IMG/VR virus record: IMGVR_UViG_2657245588_000006
Strand: one strand, 5' to 3'
Length of the DNA stretch: 37,059 nt
Source of the DNA: a virus
Taxonomy: Duplodnaviria > Heunggongvirae > Uroviricota > Caudoviricetes
Shown here: in pieces, positions 15,812-37,059 of the stretch
Numbering within the stretch: position 1 is the first letter of the stretch
How the letters are laid out: every line of letters starts with the position of its first letter
Position numbers and translations under genes: made by a program
The notes under the pieces: generated by a model
Databases searched by the model: none
What the model was told of the DNA's origin: nothing
Seen by the model: the letters and a program-made list of their open reading frames with translations, nothing else

Positions 15812-16060
15812 TGTTCATTCCACGGCCAAAAACAGAGAAAGGAAACGACAGAGGCCCAAAAGCTCGTTTTCAGCACCTGTCGTTTCCTTTCTTTTCAGGG
15901 GGTATTTTAAATAAAAACATTAAGTTACGACGAAGAAGAACGGAAATGCCTTAAACCGGAAAATTTTCATAAATAGCGAAAACCCGCGAGGTCGCCGCCC
16001 CGTAACCTGTCGGATCGCCGGAAAGGACCCGCAAAATGATAATAATTATCATCTGCATGT
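15812..16060 (-). other. cos: cos site: cosB between cosN and Nu1, cosN cohesive-end sequence at 15989..16000, cosQ side to about 16060
   Basis: Plus strand aggtcgccgccc at 15989..16000 is the reverse complement of the lambda 12-nt cohesive end GGGCGGCGACCT; flanking sequence on both sides matches the remembered lambda left and right genome ends. Confidence 0.9.
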
Positions 16061-16199
16061 CACAACGTGCATCTACGCCATCAAACCACGTCAAATAATC
16101 AATTATGACGCAGGTATCATATTAATTGATCTGCATCAACTTAACGTAAAAACAACTTCAGACAATACAAATCAGCGACACTGAATACGGGACAACCTC

Positions 16200-16433
16200 A
16201 TGTCAACGAAGAACAGAACCCGCAGAACAACAACCCGCAACATCCGCTTTCCTAACCAAATGATTGAACAAATTAACATCGCTCTTGATCAAAAAGGGTC
16301 CGGGAATTTCTCAGCCTGGGTCATTGAAGCCTGCCGCCGGAGACTGTGCTCAAAAAAAAGAGTTTCTCCTGAAGCAAACAAAGAAAAGAGTGACATTACT
16401 GAATTGCTCAGAAAACAGATCAGACCAGATTGA
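16200..16433 (+). CDS. Small YlcI-like protein (DUF3950-type, ribbon-helix-helix-like pattern)
   Basis: 77-aa ORF starting MSTKNRTRRTTTRNIRFPNQMIEQINIALDQKGSGNFSAWVIEACRRRL; resembles cos-proximal YlcI of defective lambdoid prophages as I remember it. Confidence 0.5.
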   Translation: MSTKNRTRRTTTRNIRFPNQMIEQINIALDQKGSGNFSAWVIEACRRRLCSKKRVSPEANKEKSDITELLRKQIRPD

Positions 16434-16489
16434 AGCAATTTAGATAATCGTGCAGACTACGCCCCTCATATCACATGGAAGGTACTACA

Positions 16490-16900
16490 ATGGCTCAGGT
16501 TGCCATTTTTAAACAAATATTCGATAAAGTGCGAAATAATTTAAACTATCACTGGTTTTATTCTGAACTAAAACGTCACAATGTCTCACATTACATTTAC
16601 TATTTAGCCACAGAGAATATTCATCTTGTTCTTGAAAACGATAATACGGTTTTAATAAAAGGACAGGGTAAGGTTGTAAATGTAAGATTTTCAAAAAATA
16701 AATGCCTTATAGAAGCCACATTAAAAGGATTCAAATCAGGAGAGTTATCATTTTACGAATACAGGAAAAATCTTGCTACAGCAGGGGTTTTCAGATGGAT
16801 TACAAATATCCACGAAAACAAAAGGTATTACTATACCTTTGATAATTCATTACTCTTTACTGAGAACATTCAGAACACTACACAAATATTTCCGCACTAA
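16490..16900 (+). CDS. YbcV-like protein (DUF1398 family, tentative)
   Basis: Track ORF from 16475; second ATG at 16490 with an AAGG-type RBS gives 136 aa; cos-proximal position as in DLP12; family assignment from memory only. Confidence 0.4.
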
Positions 16901-17194
16901 ATCATAACGTCCGGTTTCTTCCGCGCCAGAACCGGACTCGCTGGCATGATGAAATATGTGTACCCGGTAACCCTGGTGTGCATCGTTTTTGATTATTCCC
17001 GCACACTCGCGCAGAAGGAGTTCCCCGTCGGGCTACGGTCTCTGTTAATACGGGAATACGGCGACGATACAGCGCATGATGTGTCAGGCTTGAATACCTT
17101 TATCCTTTAAAAGGGATATCAGTTAAGTTATCCCGTGTAGGGTATAAGCCATTATCAAAGCCACTCTGTAGGGAATGGCTTTTGTGATGGCAAT

Positions 17195-17250: not shown

Positions 17251-17991
17251 TTATTTCGTAGGGAAAGATGTGATCACATCAACGATGGGCTGGATTGAAA
17301 ATCCAATACCAATTCCGGAGTTAGCATTCTGCGACATCATGTCCGAAACAATCTGTAGCGATCTACCAAACATGTCCGCCATTTGCCCGAAATTAACACC
17401 CATGATCTCAACACTTCCATGCTGACTTGCTGAAGAAAGATATTGTCGCAGTTGGGCTATTTCTTGGCTGAAAGCATCAGCCTGATCGCCCATTATATAT
17501 CTACGCTGGGTGACGATACCTACTAACTCTCCCGAATCTCGATCAATAATAGGTCCTCCTGAGTTCCCCCCATTAACCATTCCATCAAGCGTAAATCGGC
17601 CATGCTCCATCGGTGCTGAAATAATTGCCTCACTTGTTAGTAACAGAGGTATCCCATGCGGGTATCCTGCAAAAATTACTTTTCTGCCCCTGGATGGAGC
17701 AAACCCAGCAGATGGTTGAAGGACTGTTCTCCCGGCAGGAAGCTGTGATTGCAACCGCATAATCGCAAAGTCGTTGTCACCATCAATGTGCAATATTTGA
17801 GCTTCGATATGCTCATTAACTTCAGTTTGAAGGATGACATGATTAATTTGACGCAGGTTCTGCAAGTCACAGCAGGTGGCGACAACATGCAAATTGGTTA
17901 CGACCAGATCTTCTCGCATGAAGCTGAACCCACTACCACGAGAATCACCTGCAATGACCTGAAACGTTGCGTTGGCTAAAGTTTGATGCAT
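17251..17991 (-). CDS. Trypsin-like (S1/chymotrypsin fold) serine protease, no signal peptide
   Basis: 246-aa ORF with GGAG RBS; candidate catalytic His in VTNLHVV, Asp in GDNDFAIM, Ser in GGNSGGP; no N-terminal hydrophobic signal. Confidence 0.7.
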   Translation of the reverse strand: MHQTLANATFQVIAGDSRGSGFSFMREDLVVTNLHVVATCCDLQNLRQINHVILQTEVNEHIEAQILHIDGDNDFAIMRLQSQLPAGRTVLQPSAGFAPSRGRKVIFAGYPHGIPLLLTSEAIISAPMEHGRFTLDGMVNGGNSGGPIIDRDSGELVGIVTQRRYIMGDQADAFSQEIAQLRQYLSSASQHGSVEIMGVNFGQMADMFGRSLQIVSDMMSQNANSGIGIGFSIQPIVDVITSFPTK

Positions 17992-21072: not shown

Positions 21073-22068
21073 ATGTTTGAGCAGCGTAAAGCCCTGTATG
21101 CGCAACTGGAACAAGCACGCAATTCAAAAGTATTATGCTATGTAACAGGTGATAGACCAAACCAAGAAGCTCAAATCAGCGCTGATGTATTCGATCTGTT
21201 CGTCAATCATCTTGATGTGATAGGTGATGTTCAAAAAATTAGCCTCGTGCTCTATACGCGAGGCGGCGACACTTTAACAGCATGGAGCCTTGTAAACCTG
21301 CTTCGTCAGTTTTGTAAAGAACTCGAAATCATAATCCCATCCAAATGCCATAGTTCTGGGACGATAATGTGCCTTGGCGCGAACAACTTGGTTATGACCA
21401 AGCAGGCAACCTTAGGGCCAATCGATCCAAGTGTGAATACACCACTTAACCCTTCGGCCATAATCAATGGGCAGCCACTTCAACTTCCAGTCAGTGTTGA
21501 AGAAATCAATGGCTATCTTGAAGTAGTTAAGCATGATTTGAGTATCAAAGATGATGCCTCACTTGCACAGATCCTCCTTGCATTAAGTGAAAAGGTTCAT
21601 CCCTTGGTACTTGGAAAAGTCTATCGAGCTAAAGCGCAGATTCAAATGCTCGCAAGAAAACTACTGTCTCACCAACTCACTGATAGTGAAAGCATTGAGA
21701 AAATTGTAAGTTTCCTTTGTAGTGATTCTGGTAGCCATGACTACACTATAAATAGGATTGAAGCGGTAAACGATTTAGGTCTTACGGTGGAAAAACCAGA
21801 TGAGCACCTTTACGGTCTGATCAAAGAAATTTATGAAGATTTCAAAACTGAGATGCATCTGGGTGAACCTTTTGACCCAAATGCTATCTTAGGAACAGTT
21901 AACCAGGCATCGTACGTATCTGTCAGAAGCATTTTAGAGGCTCCAGACACGTTTTCATATCAATTCCGCACTGAGGGGATGTTACAGCGTTTGCAAGTTC
22001 CAGGCGTCCCAGGTCAGTTCGGCATAAATCATAACCTTATCTCAGAGGGGTGGGCTCGACATGGATAA
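21073..22068 (+). CDS. ClpP/crotonase-fold serine protease, SDH (serine dehydrogenase proteinase)-family-like
   Basis: 331-aa ORF with AAGGA RBS; YTRGGDTLTAWSL and KCHSSGTIMCLGAN resemble the ClpP/SppA oxyanion and Ser-nucleophile regions; oriented opposite to the flanking Q and S genes. Confidence 0.6.
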   Translation: MFEQRKALYAQLEQARNSKVLCYVTGDRPNQEAQISADVFDLFVNHLDVIGDVQKISLVLYTRGGDTLTAWSLVNLLRQFCKELEIIIPSKCHSSGTIMCLGANNLVMTKQATLGPIDPSVNTPLNPSAIINGQPLQLPVSVEEINGYLEVVKHDLSIKDDASLAQILLALSEKVHPLVLGKVYRAKAQIQMLARKLLSHQLTDSESIEKIVSFLCSDSGSHDYTINRIEAVNDLGLTVEKPDEHLYGLIKEIYEDFKTEMHLGEPFDPNAILGTVNQASYVSVRSILEAPDTFSYQFRTEGMLQRLQVPGVPGQFGINHNLISEGWARHG

Positions 22069-32950: not shown

Positions 32951-33160
32951 ATGGCAAAACTAATGAAAGCGAGCCAATGGGGACGCCGTGAATTCTCTAA
33001 TGGCTCAATTCCTGACAACCGAACGATAAAACGCTGGGTCGAGAACGGTCTGCTCATGGGGCGTATCGTGGACGGTTCTGTTTTTGTCTGCGAAACAGAA
33101 AAATGGGGAGTCGACTCAATGGTTAGTCAAGCTGTTCGCAAGTTAATAAATGAGGGATGA
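32951..33160 (+). CDS. xis: Excisionase
   Basis: ATG at 32951 with GGAG RBS; 69 aa with a lambda-Xis-like pattern (TIKRWVENGLLMGRIVDGSVFV); stop overlaps the int start. Confidence 0.65.
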   Translation: MAKLMKASQWGRREFSNGSIPDNRTIKRWVENGLLMGRIVDGSVFVCETEKWGVDSMVSQAVRKLINEG

Positions 33161-34341
33161 CCATGGCGGCAAGGCCACGTAAAAAAGAATACAGACATCT
33201 TCCTGATTATCTGGTTTTTGATAAAGATCGAGGTGTTTATAAATTCACACTTATTACCGGAAAAAAGAAAAATATAGGTAAGGATCGGGCAATAGCCGTT
33301 GCAATCGCCAGAGAGTACAACCTGAGGATGCGATCAGAATTATACCCATCAGTGGATAATCTTATTAGAGAATCTGGCGGGGTCACCGGAGAAGCAAAAC
33401 CATTTGCTGAACATGTCGATCACATAATGGCCAGAATTATCGAAGACGAACGACCTTCCCAGAGTACCTTAGATGACTGGAAAAATGACGCTCTACGCGT
33501 AAAAGCGTTTTTCGTAAATGTTCCGGCATGCGATATCGAACTTGAACACGTTAATGCCTACATCAACAAATATCATGCCAGCGCATCCGCAAATGTGCAG
33601 AACAGAAAGGTCAGCTTTCTTAAAAAGTTGTTCTCTTATGCGGTCGATGAATCACTAATGCAGGATAACCCGGCCATCAGAAAAAAAATGCGTAGGACTG
33701 ATGAGAAGAAAAGACGGCGCCTGTCACTCGAACATTTTATAGCTATCAGGCAGGCCGCTGCACCATGGTTAAGAACAGCAATGGACCTAGCATTGCAGAC
33801 TACACATGCACGACTCGAAGTATCGCGAATCCGTTACTCAATTCGCGAACCTAAAGACGGTTTATGTGGATGTGTTTGGTTCGAACAACCACAAAATGGC
33901 ATATATGGTACACTATACATCCATAGGCAAAAAGTACAAAAAAAGGAGGCATCACATGTTGCAATACCAATTGGTGAAGAATTGAAACGGATAATTGACA
34001 ATAGCCGTGACAATGTGGCCAGTCCCTTTGTCGTTCATAGAATCCCAGAACGGCATGTTAAACGCAGTAAAGAGGTTTCGCACCCAACTCAAGTTGCACC
34101 AGATTATTTGAGTCGGTCATTCTCTTCCGTGCGAGACAAACTCGGACTATGCAATCATCTAGCAATGGAACAAAGACCTACATTCCATGAAATAAGAGCT
34201 TTGGCAGCTCACCTATTTGATAAACAAGGGATTGATCCGCAGGGACGAATGGCACATAGCGATGCGAAATCTACTAAAATTTATACTAAAAATCATATAG
34301 ATTGGATTGTTGTCCCTCATGGAGAAATTAAAACCGGTTAG
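33157..34341 (+). CDS. int: Tyrosine integrase
   Basis: 394-aa ORF; C-terminal HEIRALAAH and Tyr in STKIYTKNH; a start at 33163 has the better RBS spacing. Confidence 0.85.
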   Translation: MTMAARPRKKEYRHLPDYLVFDKDRGVYKFTLITGKKKNIGKDRAIAVAIAREYNLRMRSELYPSVDNLIRESGGVTGEAKPFAEHVDHIMARIIEDERPSQSTLDDWKNDALRVKAFFVNVPACDIELEHVNAYINKYHASASANVQNRKVSFLKKLFSYAVDESLMQDNPAIRKKMRRTDEKKRRRLSLEHFIAIRQAAAPWLRTAMDLALQTTHARLEVSRIRYSIREPKDGLCGCVWFEQPQNGIYGTLYIHRQKVQKKEASHVAIPIGEELKRIIDNSRDNVASPFVVHRIPERHVKRSKEVSHPTQVAPDYLSRSFSSVRDKLGLCNHLAMEQRPTFHEIRALAAHLFDKQGIDPQGRMAHSDAKSTKIYTKNHIDWIVVPHGEIKTG

Positions 34342-34478
34342 TTATTAAATTCTCCACTTTATTTTGACTGACAATAACGGTTGCTAAGGCATAGAGTAAA
34401 GCTTAATTTAAAAGGCAGTTCTATGCCCATTTACCATAACTTCTCCCTTGTCCAGAAAGCAATATTTATTAATAAAAT

Positions 34479-35435
34479 TTATTTACCCTTATTATACTCT
34501 TCAGTAATCTTATTCATGGATGATATATATTTATCCAGCCCACCATAGTTGGCTATCATTCGAAATGAATTACGGTACTCTGCCATTTTCACATCATGAT
34601 TAGTAATTCCACACCAGCCACAAACTTTATTTTCCATGTTTAAAGGCTCATAACATTTTTTACATTGCCTTGATGCAGGTATTATATTGCCATTAATAAA
34701 TTGGTGTGATTTGAGATTTTGAGATAAAAGAAATGGTGTAGTTGTTGTTTTTCCTATTACCATTTCGAAATATCTACATTTAGCCTTTTTAGCTAAAGAT
34801 TGAATTTTCTGCTTTAATAAATCATTTGATTTGTGCCCAACTATAACTCCAGTTATACAATTAATCGGTACCGGAAGGAGCATAAGATTGTCATTCAGTT
34901 TAGTAAGTGCTTTCTCATTAATTATTACGCGACGTTCCTGCTCATAACTCCAGCAAGTTTGTTTTGTCAAATATGCGGCTGTCATTATACAGGATTGTAG
35001 CCAGTAGATATAACGAGGTTTACAGATATGAAATGCTCTCGCCAGAATGTCTTCAATACCTGTATCTGGAGAATCTTTATATTCAACATCTGCTATTGAA
35101 CTATGATCCTGGAAGCCGATTTCATCCAAATACTTTTTAAACTTCTCCTCATTAATCTCTATTACAAAACCAGAAGAATTACCTGCATAATGTGCCCACA
35201 TAGGTGGTATCACAGGGCTTTTCGTAAAACAAGTTGCTGGTTGTTTTGTAACCATGCCAATCATTTCATTGTAAAATGCTAACTCATCAGAACCGCGATT
35301 AAAATCAATAGTAAGGAAAAACTCATAGGGATCATTATATTCATGTAAATGAGAGAATTTTATTCCTATATGTGTTTCATCCATCATCAATTTATCAATT
35401 ATATCCGCTCCCATAAACTTATACAAATTGGTCAT
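34479..35435 (-). CDS. DUF2971-like protein with C-terminal CxxC...CxxC zinc ribbon (function unknown; family assignment tentative)
   Basis: ATG at 35435 with AGGAG RBS gives 318 aa; N-terminal LYKFMGADIIDKLMMDETHIGIKFSHLHEYNDPYEF pattern; C-terminal CKKCYEPLNMENKVCGWCG; strongly AT-rich. Confidence 0.5.
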   Translation of the reverse strand: MTNLYKFMGADIIDKLMMDETHIGIKFSHLHEYNDPYEFFLTIDFNRGSDELAFYNEMIGMVTKQPATCFTKSPVIPPMWAHYAGNSSGFVIEINEEKFKKYLDEIGFQDHSSIADVEYKDSPDTGIEDILARAFHICKPRYIYWLQSCIMTAAYLTKQTCWSYEQERRVIINEKALTKLNDNLMLLPVPINCITGVIVGHKSNDLLKQKIQSLAKKAKCRYFEMVIGKTTTTPFLLSQNLKSHQFINGNIIPASRQCKKCYEPLNMENKVCGWCGITNHDVKMAEYRNSFRMIANYGGLDKYISSMNKITEEYNKGK

Positions 35436-35480
35436 ATACAACTCCTTTTTTATAAAATAACATTTTAAATCATATGATTA

Positions 35481-35882
35481 TGGAGGCACAAAATCCAGTA
35501 ATTAGTTTTCAAGCCGGTTGTGATGTAGTTCGAGGACAAACTGAAACGTATTATTGATAACAGTCGCGATAACGTTGCCTGCCCGTATATCGTTCACCGT
35601 ATACCGAGCGTAATAACAAACGCAGTAAAGAGGTATCCGCACCTGCCTATCTTAGCCATACTTTTCATTGCCCCGTGATTCGTTAGGCTTGTGTAATAAT
35701 TTGACGATGGAGCTGCGCCCCCACATTCCACAAAATACGCGCACTAGCTGCATTTTGTTTGATAAACAGGGAGTAGACCACAAGGGCTCATAGCCCACAG
35801 CGACGCGAAATCAACGAAAATTTATACGCGGAACCATATGATTGGGTAATGCTTCCGCACGGTGAAATTAAATACAATGCAT
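35481..35882 (+). pseudogene. Diverged 3' remnant of a second tyrosine-integrase gene
   Basis: DNA alignable by eye to the int 3' end at about 33945..34341, ending at the equivalent stop codon; no intact upstream ORF. Confidence 0.6.
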
Positions 35883-35886
35883 AATA

Positions 35887-35913
35887 AAATTGGCCTCAAA
35901 TGAGGCCAATTTT
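35887..35913. terminator. Inverted-repeat hairpin between convergent transcription units
   Basis: AAAATTGGCCTCA aa TGAGGCCAATTTT with A/T-rich flanks on both sides. Confidence 0.4.
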
Positions 35914-35918
35914 GGGGA

Positions 35919-36302
35919 TTAGGACGCTTTAGACTTGGTCATATTAGCGCAACGCTGGATTAATTTCTCTGCAGTCTTAATCGCGGTGCTTGATTGGGTT
36001 GGCGTAATAGTGTCGTTAAGTCTGTAATCACAAACTATTCTCTGATCCTTAAGCGATTGAAGAGCATACCCCAAACCAATTAAGTCTCTTTTTTCAAAAG
36101 GTTCGTTACCCTTCCAAGCATCGTTAACAAGATAGTCAATGAGGCCTTGGTGACTTTCTTTCGGCCCCATGGTCAAACACGGAAGTACGTGGTGATAAGC
36201 ACCATAATACGCACGTGCGACAGCGTTTCTGTAACCAATTTCGTCGTTACGCTTTTCACAATCTTTTGCGAAAGCGATAAAATCGGAACTATTAACTGGC
36301 AC
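35919..36302 (-). CDS. Hypothetical protein, second gene of a two-gene operon
   Basis: Track ORF starts at a TTG at 36353; GTG at 36302 has GGAGG 9 nt upstream and overlaps the upstream stop by 11 nt; contains an R-x6-H element RAYYGAYH. Confidence 0.45.
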   Translation of the reverse strand: MPVNSSDFIAFAKDCEKRNDEIGYRNAVARAYYGAYHHVLPCLTMGPKESHQGLIDYLVNDAWKGNEPFEKRDLIGLGYALQSLKDQRIVCDYRLNDTITPTQSSTAIKTAEKLIQRCANMTKSKAS

Positions 36303-37059
36303 GCGCAGGTTCCTCCAAACGCCCTTCAAACCATACGCTGAAGGGTTTTCCAATCAAACTTTCATTTTCTGCAAGAGAAAATGCTATATCCAAGTTCATA
36401 TCAGAGAGAACATCAGAATCTTCAGTATTAACTGCCATGACATATGATGACGTACGCTCTTCAGGGATAGAGCAGAAAGACATAGCAACAGGACTAACTT
36501 TATGGTCAGCCATGATATCCACTATGCGGTTTGCAATATCCTGTAGTTCTTCATCAGTAATTCCAGTTGCACTTTTGAAGGTCGTGGATTGGGCCAGTGC
36601 TGTGGCTGCGAGGTGCTTAACCAATTCAGCCTCCTTTTCATCTACCATACTTATCAATCTCTCAGCATAGTAGAGCGCTTTGTCAATACGCCCCAAGAAC
36701 AAGTTAGCTTCCCATGCATGGGACAGCATCGTAGGGGAGTTATAACGTTCAACTAATCGATTTACCACTTGTTCAACTTCACGGAAGCTGCCGTAATCGT
36801 TGAGATAAACTACATAATTTTGAGCAATGATCAGGTTGTTATGCTTCAATGCTTCTTCAAAGAATGCAACTGCAGTATCTTTACGCCCAAAAGCACCATT
36901 AGCCAACGCTTTGAGATAGTCCTCAGATGCGCTGTCGCGCAACTTTTCTATATCTCTGATATAACGAAAATATTGCATTTCGGATATCGTATTCCGAGCC
37001 GCAAGAATATCGATTAATTCACTGCTGATTTCGTTCGCTTTTAGCGCCGGCTGTGGCAT
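36292..37059 (-). CDS. Hypothetical largely helical protein, first gene of the operon; N-terminus may lie outside the window
   Basis: 255 codons open from the window edge (an ATG sits at 37059..37057) to the stop at 36292; no family recognised. Confidence 0.5.
   Translation of the reverse strand: MPQPALKANEISSELIDILAARNTISEMQYFRYIRDIEKLRDSASEDYLKALANGAFGRKDTAVAFFEEALKHNNLIIAQNYVVYLNDYGSFREVEQVVNRLVERYNSPTMLSHAWEANLFLGRIDKALYYAERLISMVDEKEAELVKHLAATALAQSTTFKSATGITDEELQDIANRIVDIMADHKVSPVAMSFCSIPEERTSSYVMAVNTEDSDVLSDMNLDIAFSLAENESLIGKPFSVWFEGRLEEPARAS

Follow-up and report, generated by a model that had tools for sequence, protein, structure and literature searches.

A stand-alone DUF2971 gene of an Escherichia coli proL prophage has a predicted ADP-ribosyltransferase fold and is a candidate for phage defence

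DUF2971 proteins have been assigned to the ADP-ribosyltransferase (ART) superfamily by a bioinformatic survey, which classed them as DarT/AbiGi-like and described an ExE motif as well as a conserved tyrosine (PMC12522546). A single member has been validated, Aristaios from the Lactococcus plasmid pUCCL641_199 (Grafakou et al. 2024), a single-gene, abortive infection (Abi)-like anti-phage system with an ART fold, in which the ART domain 'covers most' of the protein (PMC11381338). Aristaios confers either full resistance or none, depending on the phage tested, and it blocks or interferes with phage transcription (PMC11381338, PMC13064643, PMC12184496). Another point of reference is the PADLOC phage defense candidate PDC-S31, which emerged when genes lying within BREX, DISARM and type I restriction-modification (R-M) loci were screened by guilt-by-embedding (bioRxiv 10.1101/2024.01.29.577857). 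The protein analyzed here belongs to the same family: it comprises 318 amino acids (aa) and is encoded in a 37,059-nucleotide (nt) stretch of DNA (IMG/VR virus record IMGVR_UViG_2657245588_000006, Caudoviricetes; hereafter the window). Several Escherichia coli chromosomes contain a region with 100% identity to the window, which corresponds to a lambdoid prophage inserted at tRNA-Pro (proL), between yejM and yejO/narP.

The DUF2971 gene constitutes an accessory ('moron') gene of this proL prophage. With a rough probability of 0.55, it is a stand-alone ART gene that defends the lysogen against other phages, a reading that builds on its family membership, fold, intact conserved motifs, single-gene organization, and location on a mobile element within a recombination hotspot. 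The original prediction, made from the sequence without database searches, had called the function unknown; this can now be narrowed to an ART fold near DarT and Tpt1, with a validated distant relative in Aristaios (PMC11381338). The protein is an additional member, of variant architecture, of a known family: RefSeq labels it 'DUF2971 domain-containing protein' (WP_000183538.1), PADLOC would report it under PDC-S31, and one of its distant relatives has been validated. New here are a small clade with an invariant zinc-ribbon tail of otherwise unknown kind, and the position next to the attachment site attR in proL lambdoid prophages of three enterobacterial genera, together with a hypervariable cargo slot. 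The gene and its ribosome-binding site are located as follows:

34479..35435, minus strand: DUF2971 coding sequence, 318 aa, with the zinc ribbon in the C-terminal part of the protein (ATG 35433-35435, stop codon 34479-34481; from the list of open reading frames, ORFs)
35442..35447, minus strand: Shine-Dalgarno sequence AAGGAG, 6 nt upstream of the ATG, read from the sequence

The ORF spans 34479-35441 on the minus strand and yields 320 aa when counted from a TTG, or 318 aa from the ATG at 35435-35433. It is convergent with the integrase gene int, whose stop lies at 34341, and is separated from it by a spacer of 137 nt. The G+C content (GC) of the gene is 33.3%, and 27% at third codon positions (GC3), compared with 42% for int and 51% for the whole window; the GC minimum of the window falls on the gene, and 0.6% of gene-sized sliding windows are equally AT-rich. 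The original description of a strongly AT-rich minus-strand gene of 318 aa directly after the int stop, with an AGGAG ribosome-binding site, an N-terminal LYKF...NDPYEF pattern and a C-terminal double CxxC, agrees with these values and with the motifs read here, i.e., the N-terminus MTNLYKF...IGIKFSHLHEYNDPYEF and the C-terminal C258-KK-C261 ... C272-GW-C275. Homologs fall into 48 full-length clusters (303-348 aa, 33-99% identity), and the ratio of nonsynonymous to synonymous substitution rates (dN/dS), calculated against three alleles of 77% nucleotide identity, amounts to 0.08-0.10. The gene is thus under strong purifying selection (dN/dS ~0.09), and both the homolog clusters and this ratio identify the ORF as a real gene rather than a chance one. 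A scan for sigma-70 promoters gave matches not above shuffled expectation, and no promoter was assigned to the gene.

Membership of DUF2971 was established by the profile search that had been proposed as a check: Pfam PF11185 scores 39.3 bits against a gathering score of 22, its full profile (positions 1-89) aligning with residues 79-170, and the same family is matched by all 46 aligned homologs, from which the conserved residues given below were identified. In PADLOC, five PDC-S31 models match with E-values from 4.9e-22 to 6.8e-07 (best score 77 bits); these profiles (208-273 positions) cover residues 3-228 only, leaving the zinc-ribbon tail outside. In PHROGs, phrog_1762, a family of unknown function, is matched with 117 bits. 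NCBIfam holds no model for the protein, and Rfam gave no match anywhere in the whole window. The region has no megablast match among 50,697 phage records, and tblastn against phages retrieved only distant DUF2971 proteins of ~255 aa.

The gene resembles Aristaios in being a single gene on a mobile element, encoding a protein of similar length (318 vs 316 aa) that matches Pfam DUF2971 and has a predicted ART fold; it differs in the phylum of its host and in its vehicle, a prophage rather than a plasmid. No Lactococcus plasmid was retrieved by tblastn with the protein at E<0.01. PDC-S31 is likewise a single-gene candidate, and the protein matches all five of its hidden Markov models, but their profiles stop at residue 228 and do not include the zinc-ribbon tail. 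Other DUF2971 proteins, encoded by Klebsiella IncR/IncF plasmids, the phage-plasmid SSU5 and Pseudomonas phage BR319a, also reside on mobile elements and share the NDP/MWxHYA/WxYExExR core, but they are shorter (~255 aa), show only 22-29% identity, and possess neither the helical insert (residues ~121-157) nor the zinc-ribbon domain.

The domains and motifs of the protein map to the window as follows:

34752..35435, minus strand: ADP-ribosyltransferase-like catalytic domain, residues 1-228, including the DUF2971 core
34935..34943, minus strand: ExE motif E165-Q-E167 (ART motif III) within the invariant W162-x-Y164-E-x-E-x-R169 (alignments, predicted model)
35184..35201, minus strand: M79-W-A-H-Y-A84, i.e., MWxHYA, invariant family-wide, with the candidate NAD-pocket Tyr/His (alignments; putative ART motif II)
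34482..34751, minus strand: clade-specific C-terminal domain, residues 229-318, with beta-hairpins, a CxxC...CxWC zinc ribbon and three helices
34611..34664, minus strand: zinc-ribbon cysteines C258, C261, C272 and C275 (alignments; weak Pfam DZR/zinc-ribbon matches in 18 of the 46 members)

Comparison of the predicted model with known structures gave the highest scores for DarT from M. tuberculosis (7.1), yeast Tpt1 (6.6), Thermus DarT (6.5) and Thermosipho DarTG (5.8), followed by mouse Tpt1 (5.7), the Rhs toxin TreX (5.5) and E. coli DarT1 (5.4); Scabin, heat-labile enterotoxin and pertussis-like toxins scored lower. The top five Foldseek matches are all DarT structures (E 0.006-0.04). By two methods, then, the best structural match is DarT of DarTG, an enzyme that ADP-ribosylates thymidine in single-stranded DNA (PDB ID: 7yk3, 7omv and 8baq), and the predicted fold is that of an ART, nearest to nucleic-acid-acting enzymes, the similarity being remote. 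At the sequence level, a Pfam scan for the DarT family (E <=1 for the protein; E <=10 for the 46 members) returned only DUF2971 and zinc-ribbon families, and the clade profile searched against all PDB sequences found no DarT and no solved relative, only chance matches with E >=0.36. These matches (E 0.36-1.7) come from a PxWxHY-like stretch in eukaryotic ARF GTPases; the resemblance of the invariant PMWAHYxxNxxGF (residues 78-90, ~35166-35204) to their PLWRHYFQNTQG switch region was judged to be chance. The anti-phage role of DarT reportedly operates via abortive infection (LeRoux and colleagues, in 2022, as cited in PMC11381338). The DarG macrodomain antitoxin, which is adjacent to DarT in DarTG, is missing from this locus, where the neighbors within the window are int and an int pseudogene.

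In the predicted model, the ExE motif lies at the start of a strand (residues 167-171), as expected of ART motif III; its assignment for the DUF2971 family comes from the survey (PMC12522546). It is invariant in the 46 subfamily members, and equally so in distant members of DUF2971 (22-29% identity). Residues invariant throughout the clade comprise N34, D35, P36, E38, C69, F70, P78, M79, W80, A81, H82 and Y83 in the N-terminal part, Y119, K139, R141, Y155, K158, W162, Y164, E165, E167 and R169 in the middle, and C258, C261, E263, P264, C272, W274, C275, A285 and N289 in the C-terminal part. Aligned with the distant ~255-aa proteins (Klebsiella plasmid, SSU5 and BR319a), NDP, C69 within a CF[ST] motif, MWxHYA, K158, WxYExExR and G200 remain invariant. 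The tyrosine of ART motif II would line the nicotinamide pocket; invariant tyrosines of the protein are Y83 and Y164. This preservation of the putative active site argues for an active enzyme.

The architecture of the C-terminal domain is invariant throughout the clade. A profile of this domain retrieved 102 proteins at E <=0.001 among 1.84 billion representatives: all but one of the full-length matches carry the same DUF2971 N-terminal domain, and the short matches are mostly fragments running into it, the shortest being too short to tell. The sole exception, a metagenomic protein of 263 aa (P0064), has the zinc-ribbon/helical tail on different N-terminal ~170 residues, which gave no Pfam or PADLOC match; it could represent a domain swap or an assembly chimera. 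Apart from P0064, the domain is not a promiscuous sensor common to other effectors. A fold search with the isolated domain returned only helix-on-helix noise. The predicted template modelling score (pTM) of 0.83 for the full-length protein, against 0.54 for the isolated C-terminal domain, points to packing of the tail against the catalytic domain. Possible roles of the tail include nucleic-acid binding, sensing of a trigger, autoinhibition and oligomerization.

An ART-like fold might also serve other chemistry, i.e., that of an NAD+ glycohydrolase depleting NAD+, a Tpt1-like RNA 2'-phosphotransferase or RNA-end modifier, or a non-catalytic binder. Of the Tpt1/KptA RNA 2'-phosphotransferases, which score close to DarT in the structure comparison, only 80-102 residues align, and the invariant ExE of the protein is not equivalent to their active site, which is of the H-H-h type. 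The invariance of Y-E-x-E-x-R and MWxHYA argues for a conserved active site, and an ExE motif typically marks transferases whose acceptor is a macromolecule (PMC12522546), which makes such a different chemistry unlikely.

The prophage and its variable region next to int contain the following features:

33157..34341, plus strand: intact lambda-type tyrosine integrase of the proL prophage, 394 aa (Pfam Arm-DNA-bind_1, phrog_1, RefSeq)
34342..37059, no strand: int-attR cargo slot, which runs ~307 nt past the window end, with attR ~130 nt after that
34413..34428, minus strand: terminator-like hairpin with a T-rich tail in the int/DUF2971 spacer (consensus scan; suggestive only, as the region contains no more such sites than expected by chance)

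The left attachment site, attL, is the intact tRNA-Pro gene at the tail-fiber end of the prophage, and attR is a 53-nt copy of the tRNA-Pro 3' end (L001 24400-24453), located ~440 nt past the window end. Inside the prophage, the DUF2971 gene, an integrase remnant and two further minus-strand genes lie between int and attR; no further copy of the tRNA-Pro 3' end is present between attL and attR. The gene was originally placed at the integration junction, from which it is removed in this genome, attR being ~2.1 kb further on. Of 5426 complete E. coli genomes, 52 carry the gene, with at least 98.5% identity and in each case at just one position on the chromosome; every locus inspected in this species lies inside the proL prophage. 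This comparison of the same locus among strains, suggested together with the prediction, bears out the claim of horizontally acquired cargo and shows that the gene is not part of the host backbone. In strain GZ04-0086 (NZ_CP042336.1, hit H37), the DUF2971 region is matched in two separate pieces and an IS1 transposase is annotated there; this may be a natural IS1 insertion in or beside the gene.

Three other genomes carry an int-DUF2971 module of 77% nucleotide identity, those of another E. coli (L088, whose DUF2971 protein P0005 is 82% identical), Klebsiella aerogenes (L089 and L090) and an Enterobacter (L008). In all of them, a tRNA-Pro fragment lies only 260-390 nt upstream of the DUF2971 start codon, and homology to the window stops at 35435-35474, then jumps to 37367. 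As the homology of these relatives skips 35475-37366 and their tRNA-Pro fragment is close to the gene, the canonical layout is int, DUF2971 and attR. In Enterobacter sp. ECC-175 (L008 7737-12722), two tRNA-Pro 3' copies flank a 5-kb remnant that retains an intact DUF2971 gene (83% identical) next to an int cut to residues 292-395, so that the accessory gene has outlived its prophage.

An int of 88-100% identity to that of the window is found in 108 genomes. In sister proL prophages (int 88-92% identical), homology extends to the int stop codon and resumes at the window-equivalent position 37367, with at least five other cargo sets in the same slot:

L004 7394-8263: one 289-aa ORF
L005 7192-8248: ORFs of 283 aa and 66 aa
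L006 7567-10867, and likewise L104: an AbiLi-like ATPase (216 bits) with a partner ORF of 167 aa, plus DUF4760 and a transposase remnant
L102 5884-6603: one 239-aa ORF
L103 5758-6885: a 118-aa ORF and a 256-aa RelA/SpoT-like protein, the latter exactly at the Pfam threshold

The ORFs of L004, L005 and L102 gave no family match, and the L103 pair is reminiscent of toxic small alarmone synthetase (toxSAS) toxin-antitoxin pairs. Altogether, at least seven different cargo sets were observed in this slot, at least six of them other than that of the window. The slot is a recombination hotspot for accessory genes, some of them from defense or toxin families. The original characterization of this position as typical of defense genes is in line with the AbiLi-like ATPase, the RelA/SpoT-like pair and the PDC-S31 match.

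Among the closer homologs, those of E. coli, K. aerogenes and Enterobacter adjoin attR in proL prophages. In Morganella morganii prophages (L092-L094 8001-8942), a 60% identical member occupies the nin region, where Dam/Lar and DUF1367/Q flank it and the early genes (replication, Q) run on its strand. As this slot differs, the clade was recruited independently into at least two lambdoid moron sites. Phages are known to use ART folds for host takeover, and the enzyme might thus serve the phage itself, as a host-takeover or counter-defense ART after induction or infection (cf. T4 Alt/ModA/ModB). Its presence in several unrelated prophages would fit this role, as would the early nin location in Morganella and the occurrence of DUF2971 in virulent-like or plasmid-like phages such as SSU5 and in a P2-like Pseudomonas phage. 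However, the arrangement in the proL prophages (convergent with int, own ribosome-binding site, atypical GC, adjacent to attR) is the classic layout of lysogenic conversion, the gene persists intact in the degraded Enterobacter remnant, family members also occur outside phages, beside R-M/defense genes and on plasmids, and the only tested one defends its host (PMC11381338). A service to the phage is accordingly rather improbable.

Members of the clade are encoded in 117 of 185,579 species-representative genomes, spanning Proteobacteria, Actinobacteria, Chloroflexota, Campylobacterota, Nitrospirota and Verrucomicrobiota. Their settings include a P4-like satellite in Pantoea, a mobile element in Serratia (next to type III R-M genes and a gene with a SMEK domain) and a prophage end in Pseudomonas syringae. 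Eight plasmids carry members of the clade, and more than 500 carry other DUF2971 genes. The immediate neighbors are heterogeneous; among them are SIR2-like (3), TIR (2), LmuB (3), ThsA (3), ResIII (3) and AAA_21 (2) genes, as well as integrases and transposases. No conserved partner or antitoxin was found in 79 loci, the largest cluster of neighboring proteins spanning three of them, and macro domains are not among the commonest neighbor families. The gene therefore works alone, since no neighbor family recurs in more than three of the 79 loci and the orientation and spacing of the neighbors vary.

The same data bear on a selfish role, in which the protein would be a toxin or addiction module stabilizing the prophage, or a weapon in bacterial competition, with no specific anti-phage role. 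The closeness of its fold to the DarT toxin and to Rhs/polymorphic ART toxins (TreX, Tse2) is compatible with this idea, and so is its sporadic, mobile distribution. Such a role is nevertheless very improbable: besides the missing antitoxin, immunity or macrodomain partner, the protein opens directly with the catalytic domain rather than with one associated with secretion, and the gene has no Rhs/CDI context. A role as a secreted virulence effector, with targets in a eukaryotic host as substrates of ADP-ribosylation, as might be suspected from the ~18% of DUF2971 proteins predicted to be effectors and the presence of the family in Legionella (PMC12522546), is scarcely credible for a clade found in soil, marine and plant-associated bacteria (e.g., Rhizobium, Shewanella, Microbacterium and Chloroflexota) and a gene carried by commensal and environmental E. 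coli of many sources, in which no signal sequence or secretion-system context was seen.

The preferred reading, a defense of the lysogen, involves proposals on the catalytic activity, target, trigger, role of the tail and defense phenotype of the protein and its clade. Protection would be achieved by abortive infection or superinfection exclusion. The protein would remain inactive until infection, upon which, by analogy with DarT, it might use NAD+ to ADP-ribosylate nucleic acid or a component of the transcription/replication machinery, and this modification would stop phage development. Confidence in any particular target is much lower than in the defense reading as a whole. The C-terminal zinc-ribbon/helical domain might act as a nucleic-acid-binding or other substrate-binding, trigger-sensing or autoinhibitory module; because it would regulate the enzyme, no antitoxin gene would be needed. 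A more specific variant, in which the tail is a self-contained sensor that inhibits the enzyme and releases it on phage nucleic acid or protein, so that temperate phages would possess an antitoxin-free, DNA/RNA-ADP-ribosylating exclusion weapon, is a tentative possibility.

Several points weigh against the proposed defense. The link to Aristaios consists only in the match of both proteins to Pfam DUF2971, and PDC-S31 is one of 145 candidates, predicted only (bioRxiv 10.1101/2024.01.29.577857). The histidine of ART motif I is missing: strand 1 reads L-Y-K-F, and the lysine K6 replaces the His of HYE-type ARTs. This lysine is at least 90% conserved in the clade, and distant DUF2971 members have Q, K or R at the position; the motif I His is poorly conserved in the family generally (PMC12522546). 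The apparent enrichment of defense genes among the neighbors is modest, and most of the alternative cargo of the slot is of no known function. Finally, a constitutively present DarT-like toxin with no antitoxin would require autoinhibition, which is an assumption of the model.

With the only validated DUF2971 member residing in Lactococcus, the E. coli allele offers a tractable entry to the mechanism of the family, in the host with the best phage panels. Clear mutational targets are provided by E165/E167, H82/Y83 and the four zinc-ribbon cysteines, and natural controls by the sister prophages (int 88-92% identical) with other cargo and by the sister E. coli lineage lacking the extra insertion described below. 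If active, the protein would show how a DarT-related ART toxin can work with no antitoxin, and the int-attR slot of proL lambdoid prophages, with several cargo genes of no known function, would join the defense hotspots that can be mined.

The part of the slot beyond the DUF2971 gene contains three features:

35539..35872, plus strand: last ~30% of another integrase gene, a 3' remnant with a frameshift (collinear blastn; RefSeq recombinase pseudogene)
35919..36302, minus strand: HEPN-like hypothetical gene, 127 aa, or 144 aa from an upstream TTG (phrog_5176, 102 bits; Pfam HEPN at E 0.13 only)
36292..37059, minus strand: TPR-like hypothetical gene, 255 aa, overlapping the HEPN-like gene by 11 nt (phrog_17809, 145 bits; sub-threshold TPR)

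The remnant aligns collinearly, at ~74% identity, with nt 824-1176 of the intact int (1185 nt). The diverged integrase 3' end postulated at the far side of the DUF2971 gene is therefore real; its presumed role as a boundary of the DUF2971 module is not, since it belongs to a separate insertion. This extra 1.9-kb segment (~35475-37366) is confined to the lineage of the window, as it is missing from the int-DUF2971-attR layout of the relatives. In E. coli CFT073 (L087), a homologous HEPN-like/TPR-like pair directly follows the intact integrase of another prophage, which suggests that the pair was captured along with a piece of a neighboring int. At the nucleotide level, the remnant does not derive from the CFT073-type int, and only the gene pair matches. 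A simple tandem-prophage model is not supported: the att copy expected between the DUF2971 gene and the remnant was not found, and a tandem origin would require a later deletion. The HEPN-like and TPR-like genes, neither of which is matched in PADLOC, could constitute an uncharacterized two-gene prophage accessory or defense module. In strain J2 (L003, NZ_CP195980.1), an IS1-associated deletion took nearly the whole prophage, including int and the DUF2971 gene; what remains is a DinI-like gene on the tRNA side and, on the attR side, the HEPN-like/TPR-like pair.

Other low-GC islands (34-44%) of the prophage are located at ~16000-17000, 17251-17991 and 21073-22068. They coincide with DUF1398 and YlcI/YnfO near the terminase genes, with an S1 family peptidase, and with an 'SDH family Clp fold serine proteinase' between Q and the holin gene; these accessory genes are further candidate morons.

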